A stretch of DNA of 64,000 bases from an uncultured Planctomycetaceae bacterium. Its GTDB lineage: Bacteria; Planctomycetota; Planctomycetia; Pirellulales; UBA1268. The notes beneath the pieces were generated by a model that searched no databases, was not told the DNA's origin, and worked only from the letters and a program-made list of their open reading frames with translations. Within the stretch, counting starts at the first letter, position 1; each line of letters begins with the position of its first letter. The DNA is taken from contig CAIWZS010000413.1 in NCBI GenBank assembly GCA_903917235.1, positions 342 through 64,341 on the forward strand, in the 5' to 3' direction. The translations under genes were made by a program, and so were the position numbers. Positions 27,349 through 52,242 of the stretch are shown in pieces.

Positions 27349-27383
27349 CGTGTCCGCCCCGACCGGCGCCAGCGTCCTGCCGG

Positions 27384-29468
27384 TCACAGGAGCCCCAGGA
27401 GGTTCACCCAGCTGCACAGATCCTCGGCCGGCAGCGCATCGCCGTTGACGGGGAGCGTGCCGACCGTGATGCCGGCCGCCTCGAGCCGTCGCCGGTCACC
27501 CTCGATCTGCCGGGCCAGATCACCCCGGCCCTGCCCGAGAAGCACCCACGGCGAGGCCCCGGGTTCCGCGGGACGGACGCTCGCCTGCCGGGGCAGGCCC
27601 GAGTCCCACGCGGCCACGCCGCGCACCGGCGTCTGGATGCGTTCGGCGGCCAGCCATGCAAAGGCCCCCCCTGCCCCCCTTCCGGCGAACGCGATGCGCG
27701 ATCGGTCGATCGCGGTGCGGGACTGGAGCGCGGCGATGGCCCGTTCCACGGCCACCATGTCCCCCCTGCTCCAACGATCGGGTTCGCCGGAACCCGCGAT
27801 CACGACGGCGACGCCATGACGACCCGCCGCCACCCGCCAGGGCTCGGCCTCGGCCTCGACCGCGCGACCGTGCGGCGGACCGAAGTAGACGAGCACGCCA
27901 CGGCTCCGTTCTCCGGCCGGGATCACGGCGATCGCCGGTTGATCCACCTCGGCGCCCCCCAGCGGCACGACGGTCGTCGTGCCGGTGAACCCGCCGGCTG
28001 GATCGATGTCGCCCGCCGTCGGCACGTCCGCGGGAAGATCGCCTGGCCCGGGAGTCACTTCCAACGTCACCGCCTCGACCGATTCACCACGCCGGCGCGA
28101 CAGGGTGACGCGCATGCCCGGCTCCACACCCCCGAGCAGTCCTGCGAGCGTCCTGACGTCCTCCAGATCGACCCGCTTCGATCCGTCTGCATCGTCCGCC
28201 ACCGCCGCCGTCTCGAACACGTCGCCGGCCGCGAGTCCCGCACCGGCGGCCGCACTTCCCGGGACCACCCAGCCGACCGTCACGCCCCGCGCGTCGTTCT
28301 CGCGCGGCAGGATGCCGAGGACCGCACGGCGCCACGGGGGCAACGAGGCGGCCAGGGTCACCTGCACGGTGCGCCGCTCGCCGCCGCGATCGACGGTGAC
28401 CGCCACCACGTCTCCGGCGAACCTCCGCCCGAGACCGTGACGCACGTCCGCGATGCGTTCCACCGCGCGGTCGTCGATCGCCACGATGCGATCTCCGCCC
28501 CGCAGCCCGGCCTCCGCCGCGGGGGCGCCACGGCGGCACGAGCCGATCACCGGCTCCCCGTTGAGCCGATCCCGCGACCGATAGGCGATGCCCAGGATTC
28601 CCGGCTCGAGCGTCTCACCCGCCTCCAGCCGCGAACGCACCGCGAGGATGTCCTCGAGAGGCACGGCGAACCCGATGCCCGCATCGTAGAGCTCCGTGCC
28701 CGCGGGCATGCCGGCGGTGTCGGCCGGAAGCGGTGCGATCAAGCCGATGACCCGTCCATGGATGTCGACGAGGGCGCCGCCGTAATTGGCGGGTGATGTG
28801 GCCGCATCCGTCTGGACCCCCCTGCCCCAGGCCCGGTCGATGGCGGAAACGATGCCGACGGTCACGTTGGGCGCGGCATGCGTCCAGCCACGGCCGATGC
28901 CGAGGGCCCACTGGCCCGGAGCCATGCCGTCGCGGGCCACCGCCTCCAGCGACGGCGTGTCCGACAGCGGCTCCGTCCGGAGCAGCACGAGGCCGCGGGC
29001 CGCATCGCGGCCGACCGCGCGGGCCGCGAGCCGTGCGCCGTCGGGACGCACCACCACCACGCGCTGCATGTCGACGGGGACGCCGAACGCGGTGGTCACG
29101 ATCCATCCGGCAGGATCGATGACGAGCCCCGAGGTGGGGCCGGCGCCGGGAACGGCCTCCGCACCGGCGCCGAGTTCGGCAGCCGATCCACCGATGGGTT
29201 CGAGCCGCACGACCGCCGCGGCGACGCGACCCACCGCCGCGCGAAAGGCGGTTTCCTCAGCGCGGGTCGGCTCGCCGTCACCTGCCGCCGCGAGGGCCGC
29301 CGCGCAGGTCGCCGCGAGGGCACCCAGCAGCGATGCGGCGATCGACCATGTCGCGACACGCCGCGCGCCGCGTGGACAGGCGGCCGATCCCCCGCGGTGC
29401 CGGTGGAGCGTGGTCGCCTCGTCCCGTGTGGGCGGACGCAATCGGCCGATCGCTCGTGCGCGGGTCAA
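27384..29468 (-). CDS. HtrA/DegP-like protein with 2 PDZ domains and a C-terminal alpha/beta-fold-like domain; catalytic triad not conserved
   Basis: In-frame part of track ORF 27384-31388. The proposed TTG start at 29468 overlaps the upstream TGA (TTGA). Trypsin-fold segments read IVTTAFGV, ARGLVLL and SPANYGGALVDIHGRVIGL. PDZ segments include GAPAAEAGLRGGDRIVAID and GSAAAGAGLAAGDVF. Confidence 0.68.
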   Translation of the reverse strand: MTRARAIGRLRPPTRDEATTLHRHRGGSAACPRGARRVATWSIAASLLGALAATCAAALAAAGDGEPTRAEETAFRAAVGRVAAAVVRLEPIGGSAAELGAGAEAVPGAGPTSGLVIDPAGWIVTTAFGVPVDMQRVVVVRPDGARLAARAVGRDAARGLVLLRTEPLSDTPSLEAVARDGMAPGQWALGIGRGWTHAAPNVTVGIVSAIDRAWGRGVQTDAATSPANYGGALVDIHGRVIGLIAPLPADTAGMPAGTELYDAGIGFAVPLEDILAVRSRLEAGETLEPGILGIAYRSRDRLNGEPVIGSCRRGAPAAEAGLRGGDRIVAIDDRAVERIADVRHGLGRRFAGDVVAVTVDRGGERRTVQVTLAASLPPWRRAVLGILPRENDARGVTVGWVVPGSAAAGAGLAAGDVFETAAVADDADGSKRVDLEDVRTLAGLLGGVEPGMRVTLSRRRGESVEAVTLEVTPGPGDLPADVPTAGDIDPAGGFTGTTTVVPLGGAEVDQPAIAVIPAGERSRGVLVYFGPPHGRAVEAEAEPWRVAAGRHGVAVVIAGSGEPDRWSRGDMVAVERAIAALQSRTAIDRSRIAFAGRGAGGAFAWLAAERIQTPVRGVAAWDSGLPRQASVRPAEPGASPWVLLGQGRGDLARQIEGDRRRLEAAGITVGTLPVNGDALPAEDLCSWVNLLGLL

Positions 29469-30529
29469 CGCTCGTCCTCCCTGTGCGGCCGTTCCTCGAC
29501 ACGGGGCTTCGGGCCGAGATCGATTTCGACGATGGCACCTTCCCGGATGACCGAGAGCCGCATCGGCTCCGCCGCCGGCAACCGGCCGAGCTCGCGCTGG
29601 AGTGCACCGCGGGTGCCGACCGATCGCCCGGCGACGGCGATCACGAGATCGTCGGGACGGAGCCCGGCCCGCTCGGCCGACGACCCGCGCACGACCGCCT
29701 CCACGAACGGGGGCGTGCGGTCGAGCAGGTCGGGCACGAGGATCGCTCCGACACGCCCGGGATCGAACGGCCGAGCGTCCTCGACCGTCTCCGCATCGCT
29801 CGTCCCGGACTCGATCGCGGCGACACCGCGCACGAGTTCGGCGGCGGGCAACGCGTAGCTCAGCCAGATGCCGCTCGTCGTGGACCGCAATTCCTTGCCG
29901 AGCATGCCGACGAGTCGGCCGCGCGAATCGACCAGCGCGCCGCCCGCGGAGCCGGGGTTGTTCGTCGTGCAGTCGAGCACGTAGACGTCGCCGGCATACG
30001 GCGCCTCGGCGGCACCGCGCCGCGCCTGCAGCGGCACGATGGCCGAGACGACGCCCCGCTGCGCACTGACGCGCTCGTCCCCGACGGCGACGGCGAAGAG
30101 GTTCGACAGGGCGATCACGCGGGTGCCCACCGGCACGGCGTCCGCCGGCTCGAGCGCGAGCGCGGGCAGACCGGTCGCGTCGATCGCGAGGAGGGCGAGC
30201 TCGCGCCGCGGATCCGCGCCGAGCAGCGTGGCGCGGTGCCGAGTGCCGTCGTCGAGCACGCATTCGACATCGGCCGAGTCGAGGACCGTGCTCATCGCCG
30301 TGAGGATGCGTCCCTCGGGCGAGACGAGAATCCCCGACTGGTACCCCTCCAGTCCACGCACGCCGCCGCTGCCGTAGACCTTGACGACCGCCCGTGCGGC
30401 TCGGGCGATCGCCGCCTGCGGCTGCGGAACACCTTCCGCGTCGTCCGCCCGGCACACGGCGAGGGCGAGGGTCGCGAACACCGCCGTCGAACCCACGGGC
30501 ATCCGGAGGGCACGGTGCACGACCATCAT
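29465..30529 (-). CDS. HtrA/DegP-like protein with one PDZ domain; catalytic triad degenerate
   Basis: Track ORF of 354 aa with a signal peptide. Trypsin-fold segments: ILTAMSTV, RELALLAI, NNPGSAGGALVDSRGRLVGM. PDZ segment: GSSAERAGLRPDDLVIAV. Confidence 0.75.
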   Translation of the reverse strand: MMVVHRALRMPVGSTAVFATLALAVCRADDAEGVPQPQAAIARAARAVVKVYGSGGVRGLEGYQSGILVSPEGRILTAMSTVLDSADVECVLDDGTRHRATLLGADPRRELALLAIDATGLPALALEPADAVPVGTRVIALSNLFAVAVGDERVSAQRGVVSAIVPLQARRGAAEAPYAGDVYVLDCTTNNPGSAGGALVDSRGRLVGMLGKELRSTTSGIWLSYALPAAELVRGVAAIESGTSDAETVEDARPFDPGRVGAILVPDLLDRTPPFVEAVVRGSSAERAGLRPDDLVIAVAGRSVGTRGALQRELGRLPAAEPMRLSVIREGAIVEIDLGPKPRVEERPHREDER

Positions 30530-32295
30530 CGCCCCTCCCCGTCCGGCGTGACGAGAAACGTGGCGAAGGGGGTGGTGCCGCGCCGCACGACGATCGCGCG
30601 CGGCAGCCCGTCGTCGGCCGGCGGAGCGAGACGCACCTCGCAGGGGTCCGCATCCGCGTCGAGCCAGAGATCGATGCCGACGACGCTGCCTCCATCGTCG
30701 ACGAAAAACCGCGCCACCACACCCGCCACGGCCGACTCGAGGACATCGAGGAGCGGAGGCGACGCCGTCGCCGTCTCGTCCGCCCGCGCGAGCGGGCTGC
30801 CGTACAGCGGCGCCGTGCCCCAGTAGGTGGTGGAGCCGAGGTCGGCGGGGCCGCCGGTCGAGAGCCTCCGCCAGAGCGAGAGCGCCGCGAGCAGCCCGCC
30901 GCTCCCGGGAGGATCGGCGGCGGCGTCGAGCTCCCCGCGTGGATCGAGCGTCGACCGCCCGGTCGGCAGATCGATCGAGACCACCGTGTCATCCACCTCG
31001 ATGCGGAAGTCGCCCGACTCGGCAAGCGTGCCACCGAACCGCCACGGCCCCGCCGGCGGGCGGCGTGCGGCCGCGATGGCCGCGGCCACGCGGTCCCGCT
31101 CGACGACGTTGAAGTGATGATTCGTGAATCCCGGCCGCGGATCATGGACGGCCCGCACCACGGCCGGCATGTCCTCGGGAGGGGGCCGCATCGTCTCCGG
31201 CCGGCCGGGCACGTCGTCGGGCGCGGGCCGGCCCGGACCTCGATCGGGCCGACGATCGCCGGCGACGATCGCCGCGAGTTCGGCCGGTGCATGGAGCGGC
31301 GCCAGACGGACGAGAACCTCGGCACGCTCCGTTCCACGACGGTAGACGAGCGGCACCTGCCAGCCGGCCGGAAGCGTGCCGAGCACATTCTTGAAGGCGT
31401 TCACGGTGCGCACCGGCCGTCCCGCGAGGGAGACCACCTCGTCGTCGTACCGCAGCCCACGTCGCCACGCGTCGGACGACTCGAGGATGTCCGACACGAC
31501 GACCCGTCCGTCGGCGCTCGACGCCACCGTCGCCCCGAGCGTGGCATGGTCCACGAGCCGACCGCCCCGCAGGCTGCCGAAAAACTGCAGCAGCTGTCTC
31601 GCGGAAATCGCGTAGCCCACGCCGACGTTCACGCGGCCGCGCTTCTCGAACGACGCCCGCCCGTTCACACCGATCAGCCGGCCATCGGCGTCGAAGAGCC
31701 CGCCCCCCGAGTTCCCGGGATTGATGGCCGCGTCGACCTGCAGGCAGTCGGTGTACTCGAGGATGGTGCCCGCGGGAAACTGGTAGCGGTGAACGCCCGA
31801 TACGATCCCCGCGCTGATGGAGGGACGCAGATCGGTGGCCAGGAGGAAGGGATTGCCCGCGGCGAAGCAGAAGTCACCCGGCTGCACGAGATCACTGTCG
31901 CCGAACTCCGCCGTGGGGAAGTCGTCGCGGCCGAGCAGCTTGATGAGCGCGACGTCCCCTGTCGGGTCGAGGCCGACGAGGACCGCGTCGTACAGCCGCC
32001 CGTCGTCGAGTCCGCAGCGCATCGCCGGCCCGGCCGGCTGCACGACGTGGAAATTCGTGAGCGCATAGCCATCCGGCCGCACGAGCACGCCCGAGCCGCC
32101 GCCGGCCTCGCCGGCGAAAATCGCGACCGCAGTGGCCGAGGCACGTCGGATGCTCGCGACCCGCCGCGCCTCGGCCGCGAGCACGTCACGATCGACGGCA
32201 TCCACCCCGTACAGGGCTCCACCGTCGAGGGCCGTGACGAGCAGGCACACCGACGTGAGCACGACCGCCGCCCGCAGCATCCATGCGTTCGTCAT
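30526..32295 (-). CDS. HtrA/DegP-family serine protease (intact His-Asp-Ser), one PDZ domain, long C-terminal extension
   Basis: ATG 32295 (MTNAWMLRAAVVLTSVCLLV) within track ORF 30526-33000. Catalytic segments: ALTNFHVV, GDVALIKL, INPGNSGGGLFDADGRLIGV. There are 4-nt overlaps at both ends. Confidence 0.8.
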   Translation of the reverse strand: MTNAWMLRAAVVLTSVCLLVTALDGGALYGVDAVDRDVLAAEARRVASIRRASATAVAIFAGEAGGGSGVLVRPDGYALTNFHVVQPAGPAMRCGLDDGRLYDAVLVGLDPTGDVALIKLLGRDDFPTAEFGDSDLVQPGDFCFAAGNPFLLATDLRPSISAGIVSGVHRYQFPAGTILEYTDCLQVDAAINPGNSGGGLFDADGRLIGVNGRASFEKRGRVNVGVGYAISARQLLQFFGSLRGGRLVDHATLGATVASSADGRVVVSDILESSDAWRRGLRYDDEVVSLAGRPVRTVNAFKNVLGTLPAGWQVPLVYRRGTERAEVLVRLAPLHAPAELAAIVAGDRRPDRGPGRPAPDDVPGRPETMRPPPEDMPAVVRAVHDPRPGFTNHHFNVVERDRVAAAIAAARRPPAGPWRFGGTLAESGDFRIEVDDTVVSIDLPTGRSTLDPRGELDAAADPPGSGGLLAALSLWRRLSTGGPADLGSTTYWGTAPLYGSPLARADETATASPPLLDVLESAVAGVVARFFVDDGGSVVGIDLWLDADADPCEVRLAPPADDGLPRAIVVRRGTTPFATFLVTPDGEGR

Positions 32296-33530
32296 TTCTC
32301 GAACGCCGGACTGCGGAGCAGCACCGGCCCTCCCATGCCCCCCGCGTCGGGAAAGTCGACGAGAATCTCGAGACGCCGGGCCGTCGAGACGTCGATGTCG
32401 ATCGATCCCGCCGGCACCGCACCCGCATCGCGTCCGGTCCGAACAAGCACCGGCTCGTGCAGCACCGCGCGACCGTCGAGCGCGATCGTCATCACACCGA
32501 CATCGCGGAGCGCGTCCCCCGACACCGGAGCGGCCGGCACCGCGGTGGCGCGAAACCGCCGTGCATCCTCCGGCACACGCCAGACCGCCCGAGTCCGGGG
32601 ACGAACCACGAGTCCGCCCGCCGCCGCGTCCCCGGGCACGACGCGCGGCGCGAAGAAGGAGGCGAGGCCGGCCACGTCGGCGAGACCGCCGAAGAACGGC
32701 TCCACATCCACGCGTTCGGGCTCGAGGCCGACCAGCGACACGGTGCGACCGGAGGCATAATCGAGTCCGCGGAGCCATGCCGCCGGCATCCGGATCGAGT
32801 CGTCGATGACGAGCCCCTCGGGTGACCAGGTGATCGTGGCCGCCTGCATCGTGCCTCCGGCGACGGCGACCCGAATCCCTCGCGGCGGCGTCGCGTCCCG
32901 CAGCCAGCGGAGGCCGACCACCTTGTCGCGCCGCACCGGGATCGTCTCCCCGTCGAGCACGACGGTGACCGCGTCGGCCGTCACGCCCGTGAGGGCACAT
33001 GCCACGCAGTCGTAGGTGTCACCGGCGCCCACGACGACCACGTCACTGTCGGCGGGTTCGGGCAGCAGGGCCAGCCACGGCGCGGCGGTGCCGGCCGCGG
33101 GAGCCGGCCAGGCGACCATGTGCAAGCGCTCGGCGGGCAGCACCGCATCCTCGCCGCCCCGCGTGATCGCGGCGGTCTCTCCGGTCCAGACGAACCGGTC
33201 TCCCGTGAGCCGTGACCCGTCGAGCAGCGTGACGGCGACGGCCGCGTCGCGCGTGTCGCCGACGGCGGGGTCCGGAAAGACGACCGTGCGGACGGTGTCC
33301 AGCGGCAGCGTGTCCAGCCGTCCGTCGACCTCGATCTGCACCGACGCGTCATCGATCCGGAGCAGTACCCCGGTGACCGGCCCGCCCGAGGCCCGCTCGA
33401 TCGTCACGGTGCGCCGGGGTTCGTCGGCCAGCGTGCACGGGGACGCGACGACGAGCATCGCGATGCTGCGCACGGCGAGGACGACGCGACGCCGGAACGC
33501 GGTCCGACACGATGCACCCGCGTCTGCCAT
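32292..33530 (-). CDS. secreted protein with a C-terminal NPCBM/NEW2-like module
   Basis: Track ORF of 412 aa with a signal-like N-terminus. The C-terminus reads YASGRTVSLVGLEP..RRFRATAV..MTIALDGRAVLHEP..STARRLEILVDFPDAGGMGGPVLLRSPAF. Confidence 0.55.
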   Translation of the reverse strand: MADAGASCRTAFRRRVVLAVRSIAMLVVASPCTLADEPRRTVTIERASGGPVTGVLLRIDDASVQIEVDGRLDTLPLDTVRTVVFPDPAVGDTRDAAVAVTLLDGSRLTGDRFVWTGETAAITRGGEDAVLPAERLHMVAWPAPAAGTAAPWLALLPEPADSDVVVVGAGDTYDCVACALTGVTADAVTVVLDGETIPVRRDKVVGLRWLRDATPPRGIRVAVAGGTMQAATITWSPEGLVIDDSIRMPAAWLRGLDYASGRTVSLVGLEPERVDVEPFFGGLADVAGLASFFAPRVVPGDAAAGGLVVRPRTRAVWRVPEDARRFRATAVPAAPVSGDALRDVGVMTIALDGRAVLHEPVLVRTGRDAGAVPAGSIDIDVSTARRLEILVDFPDAGGMGGPVLLRSPAFEK

Positions 33531-33533
33531 CGA

Positions 33534-34721
33534 TCAGCGGTCCTCTGCACCCGCGGCAAGCCGCTTGAAGTAGCGTTCGATGACATCGCGGTAGTGCGGC
33601 GGAAACTCCCGCCCGATCTGCTGAAGGGCCGCCTCGCGGGCGTGGGGTGGCAGCGCGCCCCACGCATCGTCATCGCCCAGATCGCGGCGCTGCACCTCCC
33701 CCGCACCGCGGCCGCCGGCGATCCGGCTGTCGTCCATCGGTCGTGCCGCACCGCCACCGCTGCCGCCACCACCGCCACCGCCCCCCTGCCCCTCCTGGTT
33801 CTGTTGGTTTTGCTCCTCGATCCGCTCGATGAGGCGATCCAGCGACGCGACGACTCCGTCCTGCACGCGGCGGGTGGCGGGACCGGCCCGGCCGAGGTCG
33901 AGCCGCCGGGTGACGTCCCGCATCCGGCGGGCGACGTGCGCGAGCGACTCCTCCTCGAGGCCCGTGATGTCCTGGCGCATCAGCCGCGCGAGCCGCTCGT
34001 AGCGCACGGGAATGGAGTCGGCCCTCTCGAGCAACCGGTCGAGCGACTCGATCGCCGTGTCGCTTTCCAAGAGCCAGTGCGCACACGCGGCACGATGAAA
34101 GAGGAGCGCCGCCGGATCGACCGCCGACTTGACGTCGAGCCCGGCCAGCAGTGGCGCCGCCTCGTCGAACCGCCGCCGCCGTACGAGATCCCGCCCCAGC
34201 CAGAGCTTGACGGCGTCACGATGGAACGCCGTGACGACGGGCTCGTCGAGCCAAGCGAGCGCTCCCTCCGCCTGCCCGGGCGGATCGTTCCGGACCGCGG
34301 CGGTGCGAGCGTCGACCAGCGCGATCGTCTCCACGACCGCGTCGAGTGGATCCTCCAGTGGACCACCGGCGTTCCAGACGGCGATCGCCTTCCGCAGGAC
34401 GGTCTCATCGACACCCGCCGATGACTCGTCCAACCACGAGAGCGTCCGCGAGCGGATCTCATCCGGTGACGGGATCGCCCAGGTCGCCTCTCGGAGGAAC
34501 TCCCCATCCTCCGCCACCGCCACGCATGCCGACCAGGGATGCCACGCCGCGAGCACAAGACCCACGGCGACGATCGCGGGACACGCTCGCACGAGACTCA
34601 TCGCGCGAGGGCGGGATGGCGACGCGTCGACCCATGCGCCCGACGCCCCGACCGGGGAGGCGGACCACAGCGTGCTTTGTTCGCGATTCCAGCCACCGCG
34701 GGACATCGACCGCTTTTTCAT
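33534..34721 (-). CDS. hypothetical secreted/membrane-anchored helical protein with a poly-Gly tract
   Basis: ATG 34721 (MKKRSMSRGG..) preceded by GGAGGG at a spacing of 6 nt, within track ORF 33534-34817. Contains QNQQNQEGQGGGGGGGGSGGG. The C-terminus reads ALPPHAREAALQQIGREFPPHYRDVIERYFKRLA. Confidence 0.55.
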   Translation of the reverse strand: MKKRSMSRGGWNREQSTLWSASPVGASGAWVDASPSRPRAMSLVRACPAIVAVGLVLAAWHPWSACVAVAEDGEFLREATWAIPSPDEIRSRTLSWLDESSAGVDETVLRKAIAVWNAGGPLEDPLDAVVETIALVDARTAAVRNDPPGQAEGALAWLDEPVVTAFHRDAVKLWLGRDLVRRRRFDEAAPLLAGLDVKSAVDPAALLFHRAACAHWLLESDTAIESLDRLLERADSIPVRYERLARLMRQDITGLEEESLAHVARRMRDVTRRLDLGRAGPATRRVQDGVVASLDRLIERIEEQNQQNQEGQGGGGGGGGSGGGAARPMDDSRIAGGRGAGEVQRRDLGDDDAWGALPPHAREAALQQIGREFPPHYRDVIERYFKRLAAGAEDR

Positions 34722-34845
34722 GCCGGACCCTCCGACGCCGCGGACGGCGACACGAACGCCACCTCCGCCATGATACTCCCGGCCGGCACGACGCGGCGAC
34801 CGTCGGGCGCGGTACACGGGATGACACGGCGGCAGGCCGCGGATT

Positions 34846-36456
34846 TCACTCCGTCCGACCCGTGACGATGTCGTGGGCCGCCTGCTCGATGGACCGCTGC
34901 CGGTCGGCGAGCCGACCGAGCGCCGCGCGCAGTTCCGGTTCTTCCGCCTCCTCGATCCCGTCGCCCAGCAGGCGGGCGAACCGACCGGTGCGAGTGTTCA
35001 CGCGCACCTGGAGCGAACGGAGCATCTTGAGTTCGGCGAGGGCGTCCACGAGCGGCTGATCCCCCGGCTCCGGCGCCCGCCCCCCTGCTCCGCCCTGCTG
35101 CGCGGACTGCGGATCACTGCGAGCCCGCTCGAGGGCGCCCAGCAGTTCCTCGAGTCCGGCGACGATGTCCTCCTGGATGCCGGTCGTGGCGGCACCCGTG
35201 TCGCCACGGGCGAGGCGCGAGGCAGCCTGCTCCGCGTCGTCGCGCACCTGTTCGAGTGCCTGAGGGACGGCGACGGCGGTGCCGTCGTCCCGCACCACGG
35301 CCAGTGCCCGAGTCGCGGCCGTGCCGACCTCGGCCTGCTCCCGGCCGAGACGGCCGGCCTCCAGCTGCCGCGACCGATCGGTCGGTGGCCGCGGGTCCAC
35401 GGCGAGCCTGCGGGTTTCCGTGACCAGGCCCTTCTCGATGCGCAGCATGTCCCGCACCCGCGCCTCGAGCCTGACGAGAAGCCTCTCGACCTCCTGCTCC
35501 CGCAGCTGCCGGAGGATTTCCTGGAGTTCCGCCCGCGCGTTCTCGAGCTCCTCGATCGCCCGCTCCTGCTCCTCACGCGCATCGGCCCGACGGGCGTCGG
35601 CGAGCCGCGCCTGTGCCTGACGCATCCGCTGCTCGGCCGCCGCCAGCCGACGTGCCGTGCGTCGTGCACGAGAGGCCTCGTCATCGCCCTCCGACTCCCC
35701 CTCGCCATCCGAGGGTGCCCCATCCGACTGCTTGCCATCCGACTGCTTGCCATCACTTTCCTCGTTGCCGTCAGGGCGACCTTCATCGGGCTTCCCGGCA
35801 TCGCTCGGACTCGCTGACTGCTCCGCGGGGCCGGCCGATCGCTTGGCAAAATCGCCGATGTCGCCAGCCAGTCTCGCGGTTTCCTCCGCCAGCTGCCGCT
35901 GCCGCGCTGCGAGGTCATCCTCGCCCGCTTTGCCTTCCGTGCCCGCCTCGATGTCGCGCTGGCGGCCGATCGTCTTGGCAAGCCTCGCCAAAAACTGTCT
36001 CACCTCCTGGTTCGACGTGGCGAGCCGCCGGTCGTCGTCACCAGCCGCGAGCATGCCGTGGAGGGAGCGCAGCTGCTCGATGAGCCCCTGCTGGCTCGCC
36101 CCGGCCTGCAGGAACTGCCCCTGCTCGAGCTGGCGGACGACCGCGTCGAGCCGGTCCGACACCTGGCCCTCGCGCGATTCGGCACACACGCGCCGCAGCA
36201 GCGCCGCGCGCCGCGGATCGGTCGCATCCAAGAGATCGGCAAGACGGAGGAACGCGCGCTCCAGTTCGCGGTACTGCGAGACGAGCTCCTCCTCGCGTGT
36301 CGCCAGCGGCTGTGCCGGCGCATCGGCGGCTGGCTGGGCGAGGGCCGCTCCGCAGGCCCATCCCCACGCCACGAAGGCCGCCGCGGCGGGACCGAGGCGG
36401 CCTCGCGAGCCGCAGCGGATCGACGTGCGGTGCATCGACCGATCGACGCGACTCAT
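34846..36456 (-). CDS. secreted coiled-coil protein (DUF4175-C-terminal-like), acidic SDGKQ repeat
   Basis: Track ORF of 536 aa with a signal peptide (AAAFVAWGWACGAALAQP). Long heptad-like stretches, e.g. EEQERAIEELENARAELQEILRQLREQEVERLLVRLE. The ATG overlaps the upstream stop by 4 nt. Confidence 0.6.
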   Translation of the reverse strand: MSRVDRSMHRTSIRCGSRGRLGPAAAAFVAWGWACGAALAQPAADAPAQPLATREEELVSQYRELERAFLRLADLLDATDPRRAALLRRVCAESREGQVSDRLDAVVRQLEQGQFLQAGASQQGLIEQLRSLHGMLAAGDDDRRLATSNQEVRQFLARLAKTIGRQRDIEAGTEGKAGEDDLAARQRQLAEETARLAGDIGDFAKRSAGPAEQSASPSDAGKPDEGRPDGNEESDGKQSDGKQSDGAPSDGEGESEGDDEASRARRTARRLAAAEQRMRQAQARLADARRADAREEQERAIEELENARAELQEILRQLREQEVERLLVRLEARVRDMLRIEKGLVTETRRLAVDPRPPTDRSRQLEAGRLGREQAEVGTAATRALAVVRDDGTAVAVPQALEQVRDDAEQAASRLARGDTGAATTGIQEDIVAGLEELLGALERARSDPQSAQQGGAGGRAPEPGDQPLVDALAELKMLRSLQVRVNTRTGRFARLLGDGIEEAEEPELRAALGRLADRQRSIEQAAHDIVTGRTE

Positions 36457-38765: not shown

Positions 38766-38771
38766 GGATCT

Positions 38772-43885: not shown

Positions 43886-44767
43886 GCCACGAGGCTCGCA
43901 CGGCGTGCGAGAAACCGCACGAGCGCGGCCCCGACGGGCTCGCGCGTCCGGATCAGCTCGTAGTCGCAATCGAGCGCGGCCGCCTGCTGCCTCGTGCGCG
44001 ACAGGTACTCGCCCAGCGCCTCGAGGTACCCGTCGCGGAATGCCCGGGGGTTGCAGGCGATCTCGTCGAGGCCCTCGAGGCCCTCGAACCGGGTCGGGCC
44101 GTCGAACGGGAAATCGAGCTCGTCGTCGTCGAGCACGTGCAGGATTGCGACATCGTGATCGCGCGCACGCAGCCGCCGCAGACCAGGCACGAGCCCGTCG
44201 CGATCACCGAGCAGGTCCGAGACGATGATCACGAGGCCGCGTCGGGGGAGCGACTCCGCGAGCGACCGGAGCACCGGCAGGAGCGAGGTGGCCTCGGCCG
44301 GATGGTCCCCGCGCCCGCGCGGAGCGGCGAGCACGCCGACGACGCTCGCGAGGTGCGACCGGCTGGTCCGCGCCGGGACCGCCGCCCGCACCCGGTCGTC
44401 GAACGCGGCGCATCCGACGGCGTCGCCGTGCGACAGCGCCAGCCACGCGAGGCTGGCCGCCACGGTCGACGCACACTCGTATTTGCTCAGCGCCGCACCG
44501 AGACCCCGGTAGTCCATGCTGGCGGAGCAATCGACGACGAGCGTGAGGCGGAGATTGGTCTCCTCCTCGAACTCCTTCACATAGAGGCGGTCCTGCCGCG
44601 CCCAGACCTTCCAGTCGACCCGGCGGAGGTCGTCTCCGCGCACGTACTCCCGGTGCTGGAGGAACTCCACCGACTGGCCGCGGTACGGGCTCTTGTGCAG
44701 GCCCGCGAGCACGCCCTCGACGACCGCCCGCGCACGCAGCTCGAGATGGCCGATGCGGGCGAGCGCC

Positions 44768-45811
<1,044 letters not shown>

Positions 45812-45879
45812 GGAACTCTCCGGTGGTCGGTGCGACGCGGTCGGCGCTCCGGCGCCGTCCGCGACCCCACAGTGTCGCC

Positions 45880-46908
45880 TCAACGCTGGTAGATCGGAAG
45901 CGCGGCCCGGTCCAGCTGCAGGATCGTGAGGTTGGTGGCCGTCGTGTAGACGGGGCCGATGTATCCCTGCGGCCAGAACGCGCCGCCGCGGTCTTCCTGC
46001 ACTTCGGCCAGCAGCCGTTTCTCCACCTGCCCACGGTACTGCTCCCAGCGCTCGCCCCCCTCGCGATACATCACCTGCGCGTAATAGAAGTGGGCGTAGT
46101 GCCAGTGGCCGAAGCTGTTGTTGGAGATGTTGCCGAGGTGCTTTTCCGCGTAGGCGAGCATCCGCGGGACGTGCGTGTCGTCCTCCTCGCCCGCATTGAA
46201 GAGGCAGGCGATGGCGGCGGCGGATATGGCCGGTCGCCCCCCTCCCCCCTTCGAGCTGTACTGCACGCCACCGTCCGGCAGCGTGCACCGATGGATGTAG
46301 GCGATCGCCCGATCGATGATCTCACGAGGCACCGGGATCCCCGCATTGCGGCAGCCGCGCAGGCCCTGCACCTGCGTGATCGTGGTCGATCCCTCGTCGA
46401 AGTCGTTGCCGTCCTTCGCACTGACGTAGCCCCAGCCGCCGTCCTTGGTCTGGGCCCGGCCGGAAAACTCCACCGCCCGCGTCAGCACCTCCACGAGCTC
46501 CTCGCGGCGGCGCTCGTCCTCCTCCTCGCCGAGCAGTTGCGAGAGGAAGAGCATCGCGAAGCCGTGGCCGTAGGTGTAGCGGTCATCGTTCTTGGGATCA
46601 CCGATGAGGCCGTTGGGGCGCGACCGACCCACCAGGTAATCGACGGCGCGGCGGATCGGCTCGGCATACCGGCCCTGCGTGGGCGTCGAGCCCTCCATGA
46701 GCATCGCGGTGCCCGCCAGGGCCGTCATGGCCGTCGGATAGCGGCTCTCGTTGGCCGTCCAGCTTCCGCGGCGGGACTGCTTCGCCACCAGCCAGTCGAG
46801 ACCACGCACCACGGCCGAATCGACGCGTGGGTCGCCGGCACGAGCCGTCCCCACCGCGAAAAGGAGAGGCAGCAGGACGACGACGGTGGAGAAGCGCTCT
46901 CTCGGCAT
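45880..46908 (-). CDS. secreted prenyltransferase/squalene-oxidase-repeat (alpha/alpha toroid) protein
   Basis: Track ORF of 342 aa with a signal peptide. Motifs: [47 protein letters not shown]. Confidence 0.8.
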
Positions 46909-46943
46909 GACACGACGCGGCGAGGCGTTTCCGGGATGGTGGG

Positions 46944-49900
46944 TCAGCGGGGCGGACCGAGGACAGGAGGCGGACCAAGGACCGGGGCGAGACGCTCGAG
47001 CAGTCGTGCCCGCATGCCGGGGGTGTCGGCCGGCCGTCGCGCCGACACGCGAAACGGCGACTGGGGCGGAATCGCGGCGCCGGTGAAGGCCAGTTCGATG
47101 CGTCGGCCGGTCGCGCTCTCGACGAGCGCGATCGTGCCGTCATCGGGGTTTCCCGCCAGCTCGAATCCGCCACCCCCGTGCTGCGGACCGTGCTCGACGT
47201 CCTGTTGAAAGATGGCATGGCCGGTCCGCGCGTCCAGGCAGACCACCTCGGACCGGGCGATCTCACGGTCGGGGTGACGCCGCACGAGCAGCAGGATCGG
47301 CAGTTCCGCCGGCTGATGGAGCGGGATCGCGTGGCGTTCGATCGTCGCGGGAGCGGGCCAGAGCGGTTCGCCCGTGGAGCGTTCCACCGACCAGATGGCC
47401 CCGGAGAGGGGCGGTGTCAGATCCTCGCCGGCCGACGCGATCTGCGCCGCAGCGGCCTGCTCCAGGTCGCCCGGCTCGTGCGCTCCGGCGACCACGAGGT
47501 GACGGCCGGGCACCGAGACGACGTGCAGGTGTTCGAAACGCGTCGGCATCTCCGGCAGTCGCGTGGCGAAGACACGGCCACGACCGCATTCGAGTGCCGT
47601 CAGCGTGCCGTCGGGCGCGAGCACGAGCAGCCGCTCGGCACCGTCCATCACCGCGCGGGACCGACCGGGAAACTCGCCGAACACCTCGCGCTCGAGGCTC
47701 ACCGGATCGATCGCCTCGATCCGCACCGTCTCGCTGGGCTCGCCCGAGAAGCTTCCCTCGGGCTGCACGACCGAGACGATGCGGCGACCGCTCGTCGCGA
47801 TCCGCTGCCGCCGGTTCGGCACGGTGCAGGTTCGCACGAGGCGGCCATCGATCATCGAGACCACCGTCGAACCGTCGCCGTCCGGCGTGCACGCGCACGC
47901 GAAGTCGTCGTCGCACACCAGCTCCGAGACCGGGTGTCCGAGATGCCGCTCCCAGAGCACGCCACCGTCGACGTGGTCGAGGAGCATGAGTGAGGCACCG
48001 TCGTGATGCAGCACGCCGCGGGCGGTGACGCGCCCTCCTCGCGGCGACTCTCCGCGCGGCATGCCACCCGGTTCCGTGACCCGCATGCCGAGCGGCACGG
48101 CGCCATTCCGTGCGACTCGTCCCCCCCCCATCCGCCCCCACGCGAGCGCGGGCACCGCGCGGGGCGTGCCGGGCGCCGCCGGACGCGTCCACGCAGGACG
48201 ACCGCCGGAGCCGGGGGCGAGCAGGTCGAAACCGGAAACGGCCGACCCCGAATGGACGTACAGCATGCGGCCGAACGCGGACGCCTCGACACGGCCGCCC
48301 GGCATCCAGAGCCCTCCGACCGGATGGCCTTGCGTGTCGATCGCGAGGTCGACGAGGTGACGCCCCACGTCGTCGAACACCGCGAGCCGGCCGTCGTGCA
48401 TGTCCACCGCCAGACGCAGGGACCGCGGTCCGTCGCCGAGGTCGGCCGACACGACCGACGGCAGCCACCTGCGGCGGGCCTGTTCGGCCGAGGAGCGGGC
48501 GGCCGGCAGCCGACGCGGCACGACCGTGCCGAGCGGCCAGATGCCGTCGGGCGACGGCGTCGCAGGCGCGGGGTTCGCGGAGACGGGCATGCCGTCGAGC
48601 GCCGCAAGGATGGCCCGCTGCACATCCCGTCGCAGCGACGCCTCGTCGGCAGCGGAGCCCTCCAGCGCCTCGGCGAGCGCCTGTCGCGCGCGTCGCCCGG
48701 CCGGCTGGCCGGCGAACCTCGCGGCGAGCGTCTCCAGCCGGCGCACGCGATCCGCAGGATCGTCACCGGCCGTCCCCGCAGCCAGGACCGGCTCGACGAG
48801 ACGATCGGTGAAGGCGATGACTTCCTGCCGCACGGGATCACCGCCGGCGGCGACCAGCTTCACGAGCCGGCCGGCGATCCAGCGATTCTCCTCGACCGTC
48901 AGCCCGGGGTCGCCGGGGTCGCGTACGAGTGTCGGATCGGTCGACTCGGCCGAGCGAAAGGCGAGCAGCTCGCGCATCGCCGCCCACGCGGTCGCCATGT
49001 CACCGGCCTTCATGAAGCCCTCGATCGCCGCGCGGATCGCGGTGCGGGCTGCGGGCGGTGGATCGCCCTCGGTCGTCACGTCGGGTCGCAGGGCATCCCG
49101 CCAGGACGCGGCGGCCGCCCCGAAATCGCGACGCAGGCCGAACACCACGGCGTCGGCCAACGTGCTCGGCGGCAGGCGGACGGTGGCGTCGCGCGCGGCA
49201 GCCCGAATCTTCTCAAGTCCCGCCGCGACGTCACCCCGCTCCAAATCGACCTGCCCCTGCCATTCGAGCGCCCATCTCGAGCCGGGGTCCGCGGTCCGCG
49301 CCGCCTCGATGCGGGACTCGAGCGCGGCGGACTGGTGGAACACGTCGAGCGAATCGATGCCGCGTGAGATGATCTCGCCGCGATACGCGACGAGATTGCC
49401 CGGTACGGCACCCGCGCGCGCCGGGCAGCGGGCGACGATCGCACCGTCGCCGAGGGCGATCTCGACCACCTCGGGCGTGTCGCACGGGAGCAGCAGGCGG
49501 TCCGCCGTGAGGATGCCCCGGCCGCTGGGACGGCCGCCGATCGCGTCGGAGGCGATCCGCCAGAGCACCCGACCCGCCTCCAATGACCGCGCCTCGACAC
49601 CGCCCGGCGTGAGCACGACGACCCGATCGCCCGTCGCGCCGAGGACCAACGCCCGCCCCTTCATCGCCTCCTGCCAGACCGGCGTGCCTTCGCGCAGGTC
49701 CAGACAGATGACACCCGCGCCGTCGTAGGGTGCGACGAGGACGCGTCCGCGCGAGATCACGGGGAGCGAGTCGACGATGTGGATGTCCGCATCGGCACCA
49801 CCGCCGGCCCGCTCGCGGCGCGTCGCCTCGTCCGCCCCGTCGCCCGCCCGGTCATACCGATGCGCCCAGAGGAGCGTGCGGGTCGCGATGTCGATGGCGA

Positions 49901-51644
49901 CCACGGCCCCCGCCCCCAACGGGCACACGAGCACTCCGTCCGCGAGCGCCGGCGACAGTCCCGCGAGCCGGCGTCCGCGGGAGCCCGGGCTCGTGATCAT
50001 CTGCTCCACGTCGAGCTCGGCCAGCGGCTGGGACCACCGCACGCTGCCGGTCGCCGCCTCGAGCACGTCGAGGCGGATTTCTCCCTTCTCCTCGACGAGC
50101 ACGTAGAGCTCGTGCCCCACGACGAGCGGTGCGCCGAGGTACCAACTGGTCGACGGAGACGGCCGCACGACATCGGCGTCGTCACCGCGGGGCAGCCTCC
50201 AGCGGAGCCGACCTCGCGTCGCGGCGTCGTAGGCGGTCAAACGGTTTCCACCCTGCCATGCCTGCCCGCGCCGCCCGCCCAGACCGAAGCCGCCGCCGCC
50301 GAGGCCGAATTCGGGCTGGCCGCCACGGACGGCGAAAGCCTCCGGCGGGCTTTCGACGGCGATGATCAGTCCGTCCGCCGCGACCAGCCCGCCACTCGTC
50401 GCATCGTCGAACACACGGGAGAGCGTCGCCTGCACGCCGCCCGTGGCATCCGCCGCGTCGGGGTCGGCATCCAGCGGGACCGGTCCGCGATCGGAGCCCG
50501 AGGCCTGCAGCCAGAGTCGTTTGCCGCTCTCGAAGTCGATCGCCAGGATGCCCAGCCCGGTGCGGAGCACGACGAGCCCGTCCACGGCGAGCGGCGAGCC
50601 TGCCGGCATCGGTGGAAGGCCGCCGTCGGCGAAGGCCCGCCGCTGCCGCTCGAGCATGCGCGCCTCCTCGGGGTGACGCGTCAGCGGGACGCGATACCGC
50701 GGCACGAGGAGCGGACGGCTCGCCACCGCGACCGCGTTGCGTCCAGCCGTCCCGCGTGGCTGGCACCAGTCGGCCCGGATCGCCACGTCGCCTCGTCCCC
50801 GCCCCATCTGCTCGAGCCAGGCGAGCGCCTGGGGCCGGGTCATGGACGAGGCCACATCCCGTGCCCCGACCCGTGCCGGTCGCGCGAAGCGCGTGCGACC
50901 CAGCAGGTCGACGGCGGCCTCGGCGTCGCCGGCGCGGTACAGGGCGACGGCGCGCATGAGCGACACGGTGGGCTCGAGATCCGCAGCCGACGGCGCGGAG
51001 GCGATGCGCTCGAGCCACGACGCGGCGAGTGCCGGTTCGTCGGACTCGAGCGCGCCGAGCGCGGCGATGAGCGCGGCGCGGCGCCCCGCGGGAGTGTGAA
51101 ACCAGCGCCGTGCCACGGCCACCACGCCCGCCGCGTCATCGGAGCCGAGCGCCTGCCCGAGATCGCGCTCCGCTCGAGCGCCGAACAAGAGCTCGTAGGC
51201 TTCGCGTCCCGGCGGCGGCTGCGACTGCATCGCGCGCCACGTCTCGGCCTTGAGGCTCCGACGCGTCGCGTCGTCCGCGGAGCCCTGCAGGAAGGCGTCG
51301 CGCTCCGCCTCGAGGATCTCGTCGAAGAGCGCCGCGGCGTCGCTCCAACGCCCGTTGGCGAGCAGCTCACCGGCCCGCTCGAACTGCCGCTCGCGGATCC
51401 GGTCACCCGGGAGGAACACTCCCGAGTCGTCCGCCGGGGCCGCGTCTCCCTCGACGGCATTCTGCCCCGGCGACCGTGCGGCCCATGCGAGCACCGCCGC
51501 GGCGAGACACGCGACGACGGTGCCGCGGAGCGACACCCGAAATGGGGCCGGAACGGCCGGCCGGGCGTCCCGCCCTCGACCACGCCGAGGCGTGTCGGCC
51601 ACACACCCGAGTCGAGCACGATCGAGCAGGGGTGTGCGTGTCAT
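46944..51644 (-). CDS. giant secreted PQQ-like beta-propeller repeat protein (BamB-like repeats) with a helical/TPR-like N-terminal part
   Basis: ATG 51644 (MTRTPLLDR..GTVVACLAAAVLAWAARSPG) within track ORF 46944-51977. Propeller repeats include DGLVVLRTGLGILAIDFESGKRLW, HELYVLVEEKGEIRLDVLEAATGSVRW and VLVCPLGAGAVVAIDIATRTLLW. Confidence 0.75.
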   Translation of the reverse strand: MTRTPLLDRARLGCVADTPRRGRGRDARPAVPAPFRVSLRGTVVACLAAAVLAWAARSPGQNAVEGDAAPADDSGVFLPGDRIRERQFERAGELLANGRWSDAAALFDEILEAERDAFLQGSADDATRRSLKAETWRAMQSQPPPGREAYELLFGARAERDLGQALGSDDAAGVVAVARRWFHTPAGRRAALIAALGALESDEPALAASWLERIASAPSAADLEPTVSLMRAVALYRAGDAEAAVDLLGRTRFARPARVGARDVASSMTRPQALAWLEQMGRGRGDVAIRADWCQPRGTAGRNAVAVASRPLLVPRYRVPLTRHPEEARMLERQRRAFADGGLPPMPAGSPLAVDGLVVLRTGLGILAIDFESGKRLWLQASGSDRGPVPLDADPDAADATGGVQATLSRVFDDATSGGLVAADGLIIAVESPPEAFAVRGGQPEFGLGGGGFGLGGRRGQAWQGGNRLTAYDAATRGRLRWRLPRGDDADVVRPSPSTSWYLGAPLVVGHELYVLVEEKGEIRLDVLEAATGSVRWSQPLAELDVEQMITSPGSRGRRLAGLSPALADGVLVCPLGAGAVVAIDIATRTLLWAHRYDRAGDGADEATRRERAGGGADADIHIVDSLPVISRGRVLVAPYDGAGVICLDLREGTPVWQEAMKGRALVLGATGDRVVVLTPGGVEARSLEAGRVLWRIASDAIGGRPSGRGILTADRLLLPCDTPEVVEIALGDGAIVARCPARAGAVPGNLVAYRGEIISRGIDSLDVFHQSAALESRIEAARTADPGSRWALEWQGQVDLERGDVAAGLEKIRAAARDATVRLPPSTLADAVVFGLRRDFGAAAASWRDALRPDVTTEGDPPPAARTAIRAAIEGFMKAGDMATAWAAMRELLAFRSAESTDPTLVRDPGDPGLTVEENRWIAGRLVKLVAAGGDPVRQEVIAFTDRLVEPVLAAGTAGDDPADRVRRLETLAARFAGQPAGRRARQALAEALEGSAADEASLRRDVQRAILAALDGMPVSANPAPATPSPDGIWPLGTVVPRRLPAARSSAEQARRRWLPSVVSADLGDGPRSLRLAVDMHDGRLAVFDDVGRHLVDLAIDTQGHPVGGLWMPGGRVEASAFGRMLYVHSGSAVSGFDLLAPGSGGRPAWTRPAAPGTPRAVPALAWGRMGGGRVARNGAVPLGMRVTEPGGMPRGESPRGGRVTARGVLHHDGASLMLLDHVDGGVLWERHLGHPVSELVCDDDFACACTPDGDGSTVVSMIDGRLVRTCTVPNRRQRIATSGRRIVSVVQPEGSFSGEPSETVRIEAIDPVSLEREVFGEFPGRSRAVMDGAERLLVLAPDGTLTALECGRGRVFATRLPEMPTRFEHLHVVSVPGRHLVVAGAHEPGDLEQAAAAQIASAGEDLTPPLSGAIWSVERSTGEPLWPAPATIERHAIPLHQPAELPILLLVRRHPDREIARSEVVCLDARTGHAIFQQDVEHGPQHGGGGFELAGNPDDGTIALVESATGRRIELAFTGAAIPPQSPFRVSARRPADTPGMRARLLERLAPVLGPPPVLGPPR

Positions 51645-51805
51645 GGGTTCCCGGGGACGGACCGCCACCGCCTCCAAACATGGTACGAAGCGGCGGTCGT
51701 GACGAGCAAACGGATCGTGTCGGAACCACCACCCGGCATGCCATGGGCCCGTTCCCGGCCCGTCGCAAAAGCCTGATTTGCCCACGATTTCTGCGACTTT
51801 TTGGC

Positions 51806-51835
51806 TTGCAATTTCGTTTCGAGACCGTCTAATCA
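51806..51835 (+). promoter_or_regulatory. possible sigma-70-type promoter for the HU gene
   Basis: TTGCAA (51806-51811), then 18 nt, then TAATCA (51830-51835), in a locally A/T-richer stretch about 90 nt upstream of the ATG. This is a pattern match only. Confidence 0.25.
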
Positions 51836-51921
51836 GCGGCCGAGTCGGTGAGTCAAGCCGAGTCTGTCGATCGCGGCACCTGTTCGCCGCACACAATTTT
51901 TTCCGTTTGGAGGAACTGGCG

Positions 51922-52242
51922 ATGGCGAAAAAGTCGGGAAGCAAGCCCATGACCAAGACGGAGATCATGCGCAGCATCTCCGAGACGACGAACCTCGCGA
52001 AGAAGGATGTCGTGGCGGTGATGGAGGCGCTGGCCGATGAGATTCAAAACGCGCTGAAGGGCAGCGGCGTCGGCGTCTTCACGATTCCGGGCCTGATCAA
52101 GATCGAGCGCAAGAAGATTCCGGCCCGTCCGGCGAAGAAGGGCGTCATGGTCCTCGGCCAGCTGCGGGACCTGCCCGCCAAGCCGGCGAGCGTGAAGGTT
52201 CGGGTTCGTGCACTCAAGAACCTGAAGGCGATGGTCGGCTGA
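51922..52242 (+). CDS. HU/IHF-family nucleoid-associated DNA-binding protein
   Basis: ATG 51922 preceded by GGAGG, within track ORF 51778-52242. Motifs: MTKTEIMRSISETTNLAKKDVVAVMEALADEI..GVFTIPGLIKIERKKIPARPAKKG. Confidence 0.88.
   Translation: MAKKSGSKPMTKTEIMRSISETTNLAKKDVVAVMEALADEIQNALKGSGVGVFTIPGLIKIERKKIPARPAKKGVMVLGQLRDLPAKPASVKVRVRALKNLKAMVG

Follow-up and report, generated by a model that had tools for sequence, protein, structure and literature searches.

The question addressed here is whether 13 tightly packed genes of an uncultured Planctomycetaceae bacterium encode one system, and what that system might do. The genes lie in a stretch of 64,000 nucleotides (nt; hereafter the window) of contig CAIWZS010000413.1, and they include a core of MoxR(MRP)-DUF58-BatA/VWA genes, a type of operon that occurs in many bacterial phyla and whose function is unexplained. 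No explanation of that function has emerged since 1999, the year of the first description of the Bat operon (Tang et al., cited in PMC8862662 and PMC5700661). In the window, the core is joined to genes of exported proteins, among them a beta-propeller giant, a toroid, a lectin-like protein and three HtrA paralogues. The 13-gene array is most likely an ancient, envelope-spanning system of Planctomycetota. On balance, comparison of sequences and gene order leads us to read it as a single envelope system whose parts function together and whose output is proteolytic processing or quality control.

Organization of the gene array

The open reading frame (ORF) listing and the direct reading of the junctions revealed an unbroken series of genes on the same (minus) strand from 51644 to 27384. 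The initial annotation had counted 14 genes; our count is 13, and they are labelled below in the direction of transcription.

M, 46944..51644, minus strand: exported or anchored giant of 1566 amino acids (aa) with an N-terminal hydrophobic segment, a helical region resembling tetratricopeptide repeats (TPR) and PQQ/BamB-like beta-propellers
L, 45880..46908, minus strand: exported 342-aa single-domain (alpha/alpha)6 toroid with QW-type repeats
K, 44768..45811, minus strand: cytoplasmic MoxR (MRP-type) AAA+ ATPase with intact Walker A and Walker B motifs
J, 43882..44802, minus strand: cytoplasmic DUF58 (VWA-like) protein with a DxSxS (DCSAS) motif
I, 41462..43885, minus strand: 807-aa BatA_N/two-anchor membrane protein with an N-terminal transmembrane hairpin, a large domain bearing a metal ion-dependent adhesion site (MIDAS; DDSAS) and a C-terminal transmembrane segment
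H, 38772..41465, minus strand: BatB-like membrane protein of about 860-897 aa with a transmembrane hairpin, a VWA domain with MIDAS, Ig/MG2-like and GATase1/ThuA-like regions and a C-terminal transmembrane segment
G, 36453..38765, minus strand: 770-aa membrane protein with three transmembrane segments, a conserved loop of about 80 aa on the cytoplasmic side (residues about 83-163), a periplasmic region rich in beta structure and a coiled coil at the C-terminus
F, 34846..36456, minus strand: 536-aa exported coiled-coil protein with an acidic low-complexity insert
E, 33534..34601, minus strand: exported protein of about 355 aa (ORF open to 34817) with a region weakly resembling TPR, a linker rich in Gly and the conserved motif FPxHYR..IEQYFK.LA at the C-terminus
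D, 32292..33530, minus strand: exported lectin-like protein of 412 aa, comprising four small beta repeats and, at the C-terminus, a jelly roll that resembles CBM51/NPCBM
C, 30526..32295, minus strand: HtrA-1, 589 aa, the sole paralogue with His-Asp-Ser, with one PDZ domain and a C-terminal extension of about 250 aa
B, 29465..30529, minus strand: HtrA-2, 354 aa, conserved pseudoprotease with one PDZ domain
A, 27384..29468, minus strand: HtrA-3, 694 aa, conserved pseudoprotease with a Pfam PDZ domain, a further stretch judged PDZ-like by eye and a hydrolase-like region at the C-terminus

Neighbouring genes were separated by short gaps or overlapped, as listed for the junctions below.

M/L: 35-nt gap
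L/K: 68-nt gap
K/J, 44768-44802: 35-nt overlap, with GTG as the start of J
J/I, 43882-43885: 4-nt overlap, ATGA
I/H, 41462-41465: 4-nt overlap, GTGA
H/G: 6-nt gap
G/F, 36453-36456: 4-nt overlap, ATGA
E/D: 3-nt gap
D/C, 32292-32295: 4-nt overlap, ATGA
C/B, 30526-30529: 4-nt overlap, ATGA
B/A, 29465-29468: 4-nt overlap, TTGA, which implies a TTG start for A

When re-read on the coding strand, all six 4-nt start/stop overlaps of the initial annotation reappeared at the same coordinates, as did its 35-nt overlap of K and J, and its gaps at H/G and E/D were borne out. The start of A would be TTG 29468, the sole other in-frame start being TTG 29441, and that of K is ATG 45811, which is preceded by GGAG. 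The alignments of E orthologues begin near residue 73 of the ORF and suggest ATG 34601 as its start; with this start, E has a clean signal peptide and lies about 244 nt from F. The start of H may be ATG 41357 in place of the overlapping GTG 41465. Selenocysteine was considered at two places, and no evidence of it was found at either: in I, tblastn against four relatives (G015, G021, G011 and G032) showed no in-frame stop, and at the F/E junction the two genes lie in different frames. The raw ORF lists were noisy because the guanine-plus-cytosine (GC) content of the window is about 72%. The array is nevertheless more than a chance alignment of ORFs, since its arrangement is conserved while the flanking genes change.

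Conservation of the array in Planctomycetota

For the order-level comparison, homologues of I, M, L, C, D, G and A were located in 40 relatives (24 metagenome-assembled genomes (MAGs) of the same genus and 16 other families of the order), the surrounding DNA was fetched and all 13 proteins were mapped by tblastn. At the phylum level, hidden Markov models of the 13 families were scanned over the regions around the best L homologue in a phylum-wide sample. Taxon ranks are taken from kinship labels of the genomes.

All 13 genes were collinear on one strand in the four same-genus MAGs with long contigs (G006, G015, G021 and G019). Seven of the ten other families examined had the full order from M to A (G037, G026, G025, G034, G031, G032 and G035), and the remaining three were each short of one piece: L was degenerate in G040, the contig ended just after L in G028 with M on another contig, and D, C and A were on another contig in G029. 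The complete collinear array was also found in other classes, in G139, G105, G086 and G122 (family f58) and in G117 (f69). In G144 (f70), the complete array had an extra M-like gene between I and H, and in G150 (f69) collinearity held from M up to D, at the end of its contig. Variants were detected as well: K-J was missing between L and I in G130, the M-L pair was duplicated in G062, and the order was F-E-C-B-A-L in G102. Unmatched stretches of 2-6 kb were observed inside the collinear array of G019, G023 and G105, between H and G, F and E, or F and G.

The flanks behaved differently. The flanking photolyase-like gene was conserved within the genus only, and the gene of an rfbB-like dTDP-glucose 4,6-dehydratase (52461-53609, same strand), 816 nt upstream of M, was matched in none of the fetched relatives and is therefore placed outside the array.

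The set also occurs as a duplicate. A second, paralogous array with the order (L-)K-J-I-M'-H-G-F-(E)-D-C-B-A was found in G033 (C234:8000-38000) and G026 (C9:80000-110000); in it, I and H are separated by a shorter M-like propeller gene, and the HtrAs are again one live and two dead. A partial paralogue, M'-L-K-J-I-H-G-F-E-D without HtrAs, was present in G095. The genome of the window itself carries three smaller MoxR-DUF58-BatA-VWA (K-J-I-H) clusters on contigs C237, C169 and C102; those on C237 and C169 have a toroid (L) paralogue nearby, and no D, E, F, HtrA or M genes were found in any of the three.

The initial annotation had proposed that the propeller/toroid and NPCBM-like/HtrA flanks belong with the core, and the neighbourhood comparison sustains this, since the flanks stay linked to the core in relatives and their unlinking was not obtained as a rule. 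As judged from these alignments, the extended gene set is ancient, has been conserved as a unit and was even duplicated as one. Conservation of gene order to this extent supports co-function about as strongly as comparative evidence can.

A different picture was obtained in the sister family f18 of the same class. All genes were retained there with high scores, and the array was broken at a different point in each genus. K to A were intact in the fetched region of G095, with L and M-like genes elsewhere; I and C stood at array spacing in G112, with L elsewhere; K-J-I-H was inverted beside G to A in G043; I stood alone in G075, with H to A together 2 Mb away; and G160 had I-H-G together and C alone. 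The M-like giants of f18 were multi-copy and unlinked. Such breakage implies that linkage is dispensable, that co-transcription is not obligatory and that the module has no fixed boundary.

These observations bear on the possibility that the array is a supra-operon of separate envelope modules (a Bat-like one, one of HtrA quality control and one of propeller/toroid binding), held together by shared regulation or genomic inertia. The fragmentation of f18 at variable points with retention of all genes would be expected from it, as would the G130 variant without MoxR and DUF58, the toleration of 2-6 kb unmatched insertions in G019, G023 and G105, and the sizeable F-E and L-K gaps. However, a loose association does not readily explain that the order of the 13 genes has persisted across classes despite changing flanks, that the whole set was duplicated as a unit, or that toroid and D-like paralogues recur beside other MoxR-BatA clusters and D and L co-occur. 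We regard this explanation as possible, though not likely, and continue with the array as one co-functioning system.

The MoxR-DUF58-VWA core

The initial annotation had recognized a Bat-like core of MoxR, DUF58, a BatA-N VWA protein and a second VWA protein, and domain matches and motifs agree with it. K matched Pfam AAA_3 (1e-62, 210 bits) together with AAA_lid_2 and carries the motifs GVPGLAKT and LADEINR. J matched Pfam DUF58 (4.3e-48, 164 bits), has its motif at residue 91 and is without a transmembrane segment. K and J are taken to be cytoplasmic because neither has a transmembrane or signal segment.

I matched Pfam BatA (4e-12) and TIGR02226 (two_anch; 5.6e-14), with DDSAS at residue 100. 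Its VWA assignment rests on this motif and the position of the motif, the Pfam VWA families all being below threshold. For H, the VWA match was weak in the window copy and found in 21 of 26 orthologues, and the orthologues gave further matches to DUF4350, MG2 and GATase1_like. The DxSxS residues of the H MIDAS (D112, S114 and S116) were invariant in the 26 orthologues, and the H profile matched the PDB entries 3ibs ('BatB', 4.6e-8) and 4jdu ('aerotolerance-related membrane protein'). Topology was predicted from the sequences by a hydropathy scan and the positive-inside rule, according to which the large domain of I and the VWA-containing part of H are predicted to face the periplasm. The topology predicted for I and H is the one demonstrated experimentally for the Bat-like protein BB0173 of Borrelia (PMC5700661). 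BatD (PF13584) was not matched by Pfam among the 13 products or the 27 orthologues of G.

The homology of K, J, I and H to components of the Bat operon suggests a further explanation, namely an oxidative-stress ('aerotolerance') system of the type proposed for the Bat proteins of Bacteroides, which would keep the periplasmic redox state, and the literature does tie Bat and MoxR to aerotolerance and stress. Nevertheless, Leptospira bat mutants reportedly show no oxidative phenotype, and neither Pfam/NCBIfam searches nor alignments of the 13 products revealed a thioredoxin, a heme or a conserved CxxC motif. The window sequence was found in many lake-water metagenomes, and a host lineage so widespread in lake water also speaks against an aerotolerance role, as does PMC3557215, which credits the Bat proteins with no demonstrated specific function. 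The aerotolerance explanation is thus considered very improbable, and the co-functioning envelope system with a proteolytic output remains the preferred one.

One live and two dead HtrA proteases

The last three genes encode the HtrA paralogues. C matched Trypsin_2 (2.8e-31), and its motifs TNFHV, DVALIK and GNSGG were present in all orthologues and paralogues checked. In B, which also matched Trypsin_2 (3.6e-23), the His is replaced by Ser or another residue and the Ser by Ala, Pro, Tyr or another residue. A matched Trypsin_2 and PDZ_2 and has lost His, Asp and Ser, with His replaced by Phe or Trp and Ser by Tyr. Accordingly, only C is predicted to be catalytically competent. A, B and C have a trypsin-fold domain followed by PDZ, and all scored below the NCBIfam equivalog cut-offs.

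The combination of one live and two dead HtrAs held in the order, the sister family, the other classes and the paralogous arrays. B and A are therefore regarded as ancient, conserved pseudoproteases, since their catalytic losses hold across the phylum. The Tyr of A lies in the motif ANYGGA (residues 227-232, window 28780-28800 region), of which NYGG is invariant from the genus to the other classes and the paralogous arrays; this invariance suggests that A was selected for a non-catalytic function.

The C-terminal region of A (27384-27950) has G-R-G-A-G at the would-be nucleophile elbow, and none of the orthologues has Ser in this column. It was read as hydrolase-like from its sequence, the sole family support being a weak polyhydroxyalkanoate (PHA)-depolymerase match. 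The region is present in the order and in f18; the matches of A in other classes and paralogous arrays cover the protease part only.

The exported toroid, lectin-like protein and propeller giant

The hydropathy scan gave N-termini that resemble signals or anchors for M, L, F, E and D as well as for the three HtrAs. L matched Pfam SQHop_cyclase_C (5.8e-9), and its AlphaFold model (pLDDT 91.6) was a single (alpha/alpha)6 toroid. Its nearest PDB structures were small class II terpene cyclases, with 8paj, 8pak and 1sqc at the top, followed at lower ranks by GH76, sugar epimerases, prenyltransferase beta subunits and A2M/C4 TED domains. The conserved QW-type residues were Q44..G48.W50 and Q153..GGW159. 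At positions 169-172, L has D-F-D-E as against the catalytic DxDD general-acid motif, of which D171 and E172 are near-invariant and the first Asp is not conserved. Members of the class II terpene cyclase/prenyltransferase toroid superfamily are expected to be cytoplasmic or monotopic and to have access to isoprenoid substrates, whereas L is predicted to be exported because of its N-terminal signal-like segment, which the hydropathy scan placed at residues 6-24. An A2M-like thioester role was considered for L and rejected, no CGEQ motif being seen by eye in its sequence.

L was the best-conserved non-ATPase protein of the cluster, with identities of 66-72% across the families of the order, 57-61% in the sister family and 35-49% in other classes. 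In G040, only a short remnant of L (residues 161-229, 41% identity) was observed between K and M (G040:C23, about 23377-23568 of the joined region), with no close L copy elsewhere in the genome; this may be a natural loss of L.

D gave no Pfam or NCBIfam match, including the CBM51 and NPCBM sequence models. Its AlphaFold model (pLDDT 87.1) had CBM51 modules as the top Foldseek matches in the PDB (probability 1.0, TMt 0.55-0.64, about 170 columns). The description of D as NPCBM-like in the initial annotation thus holds for the fold and not for the sequence family. D was a strong single copy in most genomes of the order, and its family was matched in 100 of 121 sampled Planctomycetota genomes. 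The C-terminal CBM51-like part also matched inside ORFs of 1000-1700 aa, and no Pfam model covers the D family. A strong D match (E-value <= 1e-76) was always accompanied by L (E-value <= 1e-69), in 18 of 18 genomes of the phylum sample, although these genomes are phylogenetically related and thus not independent observations.

In G095 (G095:C1:2816000-2835999, about 9454-11603), a paralogue of the toroid and one of the lectin D lay side by side in isolation, and no scaffold, ATPase or HtrA gene was detected within about 9 kb on each side. The coordinates in G112 and G075 suggest a similar isolated L-D pair. The isolated pair hints that L and D work together.

With L and D as its functional heart, the array might instead be a machine for assembling or anchoring some envelope structure that contains glycan or lipid; examples would be the cell wall, a holdfast, a surface layer of glycoprotein or a component linked to polyprenol or hopanoid. 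HtrA-1 would then be a mere maturation protease. This would agree with the sugar-binding, CBM51-like fold modelled for D, with L as the most conserved exported protein and its resemblance to class II terpene cyclases, GH76 mannanases and sugar epimerases, with the isolated L-D pair in G095 and, by coordinates, G112 and G075, and with the G095 paralogue, which has M', L and K to D and no HtrAs. However, genes for glycosyltransferases, flippases or polysaccharide export were not found in the array by Pfam and NCBIfam, conservation of the HtrA triplet in the main array equals that of L and D, and sugar binding by D and catalysis by L are putative. We consider the assembly machine unlikely, and prefer to see L and D as partners within a co-functioning system whose output is proteolytic.

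M matched Pfam PQQ_2 (3e-22) and a BamB-like NCBIfam model, and its hydrophobic segment was placed at residues 35-53 by the hydropathy scan. Syntenic orthologues of M were found across the order and in other classes; where M-like giants are multi-copy, their orthology is ambiguous. With its transmembrane segment, TPR-like region and propellers, M resembles the third component of the MoxR-vWA-beta-propeller ternary systems, for which a role in conflict or defence has been put forward (Kaur et al. 2020, PMC7159879), and K gave a weak bpMoxR Pfam match (44 bits). However, with 210 bits on AAA_3, K is a MoxR of the classical MRP type; the vWA proteins carry no fused propeller, and no propeller was matched in J, I or H. 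Moreover, the components are exported and housekeeping-like, and the array is vertically conserved and syntenic, not variable. The conflict-system explanation was rejected on MoxR clade and architecture, and we give it almost no credence.

The proteins G, F and E

Three genes lie between the core and D. None of 27 orthologues of G had a Pfam match, and the window copy also lacked an NCBIfam match. In the PDB, G gave coiled-coil matches only; its database relatives were all named 'hypothetical protein', the list being saturated by same-genus entries without a Pfam domain. The initial annotation had called G DUF4175-like, a label for which Pfam was silent in the 27 orthologues. DUF4175 was accordingly rejected as the family of G; a single orthologue of gene E touches it (E-value = 0.014).

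F had no family match in Pfam or NCBIfam, and its syntenic orthologues were found in the order and in other classes. The window copy of E likewise had no Pfam or NCBIfam match; TPR families were matched in at most 7 of its 27 orthologues at weak E-values, and the weak TPR matches in the PDB were Fis1 and MamA (E-value about 0.03).

Expression and putative promoter region

In metatranscriptome X27, near-identical short contigs (<=470 nt) covered parts of A, B, E and I and spanned the G/F junction (36420-36830) and the K/J junction (44652-44886). These contigs indicate expression and local co-transcription at most. A likely promoter region was inferred upstream of the first gene.

Non-coding stretch, 51645..52460, minus strand: 816 nt upstream of M, likely promoter region

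A consensus promoter scan of 26500-46400 detected no promoter-like sites there, and terminator-like matches were at background. Because the genome has 72% GC, the promoter and terminator scan is uninformative.

Proposed mechanism

The reading of the array as one system is favoured by its tight packing, the collinearity of 13 genes, the paralogy of the whole array, the co-occurrence of D and L and the invariant HtrA pattern. It is also favoured by the recurrence of toroid paralogues at other MoxR-DUF58-BatA clusters (C237, C169 and G095), the intact Walker and MIDAS motifs, the structural match of H to BatB, the BB0173-like topology, the X27 contigs, and the precedent of a MoxR-vWA pair with a membrane-proximal peptidase (PMC3495828).

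In such a system, the Bat-like part consisting of I, H, G, F and E would form a membrane-anchored periplasmic scaffold. The scaffold would hold an HtrA hetero-oligomer, probably a C:B:A (1:1:1) heterotrimer with a single active site. HtrAs assemble from trimers, which makes a C:B:A heterotrimer the natural guess. Ligand-binding modules would be attached to the scaffold as well: the lectin D with its CBM51-like fold, the toroid L and the giant M with its TPR-like region and propellers. Their role would be to pick out the envelope proteins or glycoconjugates that are to be processed, quality-controlled or assembled. On the cytoplasmic side, the MoxR-DUF58 pair would spend ATP on remodelling or gating the complex, acting via the short loops that G, I and H expose there.

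In its most specific form, this mechanism would be a trans-envelope, ATP-coupled protease machine, in which a MoxR-DUF58 motor gates an HtrA heterotrimer of one active and two regulatory dead subunits and the substrates are chosen by lectin, toroid and propeller. We hold this specific form to be distinctly unlikely. If true, it would mean ATP control over proteolysis in an ATP-free compartment and provide a first concrete function for the widespread MoxR/Bat operons.

Several points weigh against a single system with a proteolytic output. The support for a complex and for its output is comparative, drawn from sequence and gene order. The array is broken at variable points in f18 (G095, G043, G075 and G160), and G130 lacks MoxR and DUF58 between L and I, so that the periplasmic part may function with no ATPase next to it. 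The predicted contact with MoxR and DUF58 would have to be made by short loops, the only parts of I, H and G on the cytoplasmic side. Regarding transcription, the gaps of about 244 nt (F-E) and 68 nt (L-K) permit internal promoters, and the short RNA contigs could include DNA carry-over.

Comparison with known systems

Full-text literature searches found no paper describing the extended planctomycete cluster, in agreement with the initial annotation, which had not recognized the composition as a described system. Bat genes of the phylum appeared there in generic mentions only, for example in anammox MAGs (PMC8862662).

The array was compared with four kinds of known systems. The ternary systems of Kaur, Burroughs, Iyer and Aravind (2020, PMC7159879), which are also reported in planctomycetes, likewise combine MoxR, a vWA protein and a protein with transmembrane, TPR and propeller parts. 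However, they have another MoxR clade and a propeller fused to the vWA domain and are variable, whereas in the array the propeller is unfused and the components are conserved, exported and syntenic.

The MoxR-vWA(DUF58)-YebA operon (Zhang and Aravind 2012, PMC3495828) couples MoxR and vWA to a membrane-proximal peptidase, as the array appears to do, and with its transglutaminase-like (TGL) peptidase it was proposed to be an ATP-dependent, membrane-proximal degradation system. Its peptidase, however, faces the cytoplasm in a protein with eight transmembrane segments, whereas that of the array is an exported HtrA accompanied by two pseudoproteases. Any ATPase coupling in the array would thus have to cross the membrane, since the HtrA is exported.

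HtrA/DegP hetero-oligomers, such as magnetosome MamE with the pseudoprotease MamO or cyanobacterial HhoA/HhoB/HtrA, resemble the triplet in having paralogues encoded together, active and dead partners and PDZ domains, and weak MamE and MamO matches of the array HtrAs were obtained with NCBIfam. The HtrAs of the array, a putative hetero-oligomer, differ in the C-B-A order with one live and two dead members, which is found phylum-wide and within a MoxR/Bat cluster, and in the invariant Tyr at the Ser position of HtrA-3 together with (in the order and f18) an extra dead hydrolase-like domain. The array thereby adds a clear case of conserved pseudoprotease partners.

The closest likeness is to the Bat-type operons (batA-E of B. 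fragilis, bat of Leptospira, bb0170-bb0176 of Borrelia and the MoxR operons of Rhizobium and Francisella). As in these, MoxR of the AAA_3 family is followed by DUF58, and a BatA_N double-transmembrane VWA protein by a second membrane VWA protein with a MIDAS; the topology of three transmembrane segments with a periplasmic VWA domain, as in BB0173, is predicted for I and H, and the TPR partners BatC and BatE have a possible counterpart in E, which is weakly TPR-like. By its domains and motifs, the K-J-I-H core is of the Bat-type MoxR(MRP)-DUF58-VWA kind in all defining features save two: BatD (PF13584), which was unmatched in the array, and the TPR partners, for which E is a weak candidate. In contrast to the Bat-type operons, the array adds at least eight conserved genes (propeller, toroid, G, F, CBM51-like lectin, one live and two dead HtrAs), and this extended set is phylum-wide and duplicated as a unit. 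The other eight or nine genes of the array are outside any described Bat operon. The array thus points to an envelope system in a phylum with unusual and little-understood envelope biology, and its fixed exported set provides concrete, testable candidates for what the MoxR/Bat module acts with or on.

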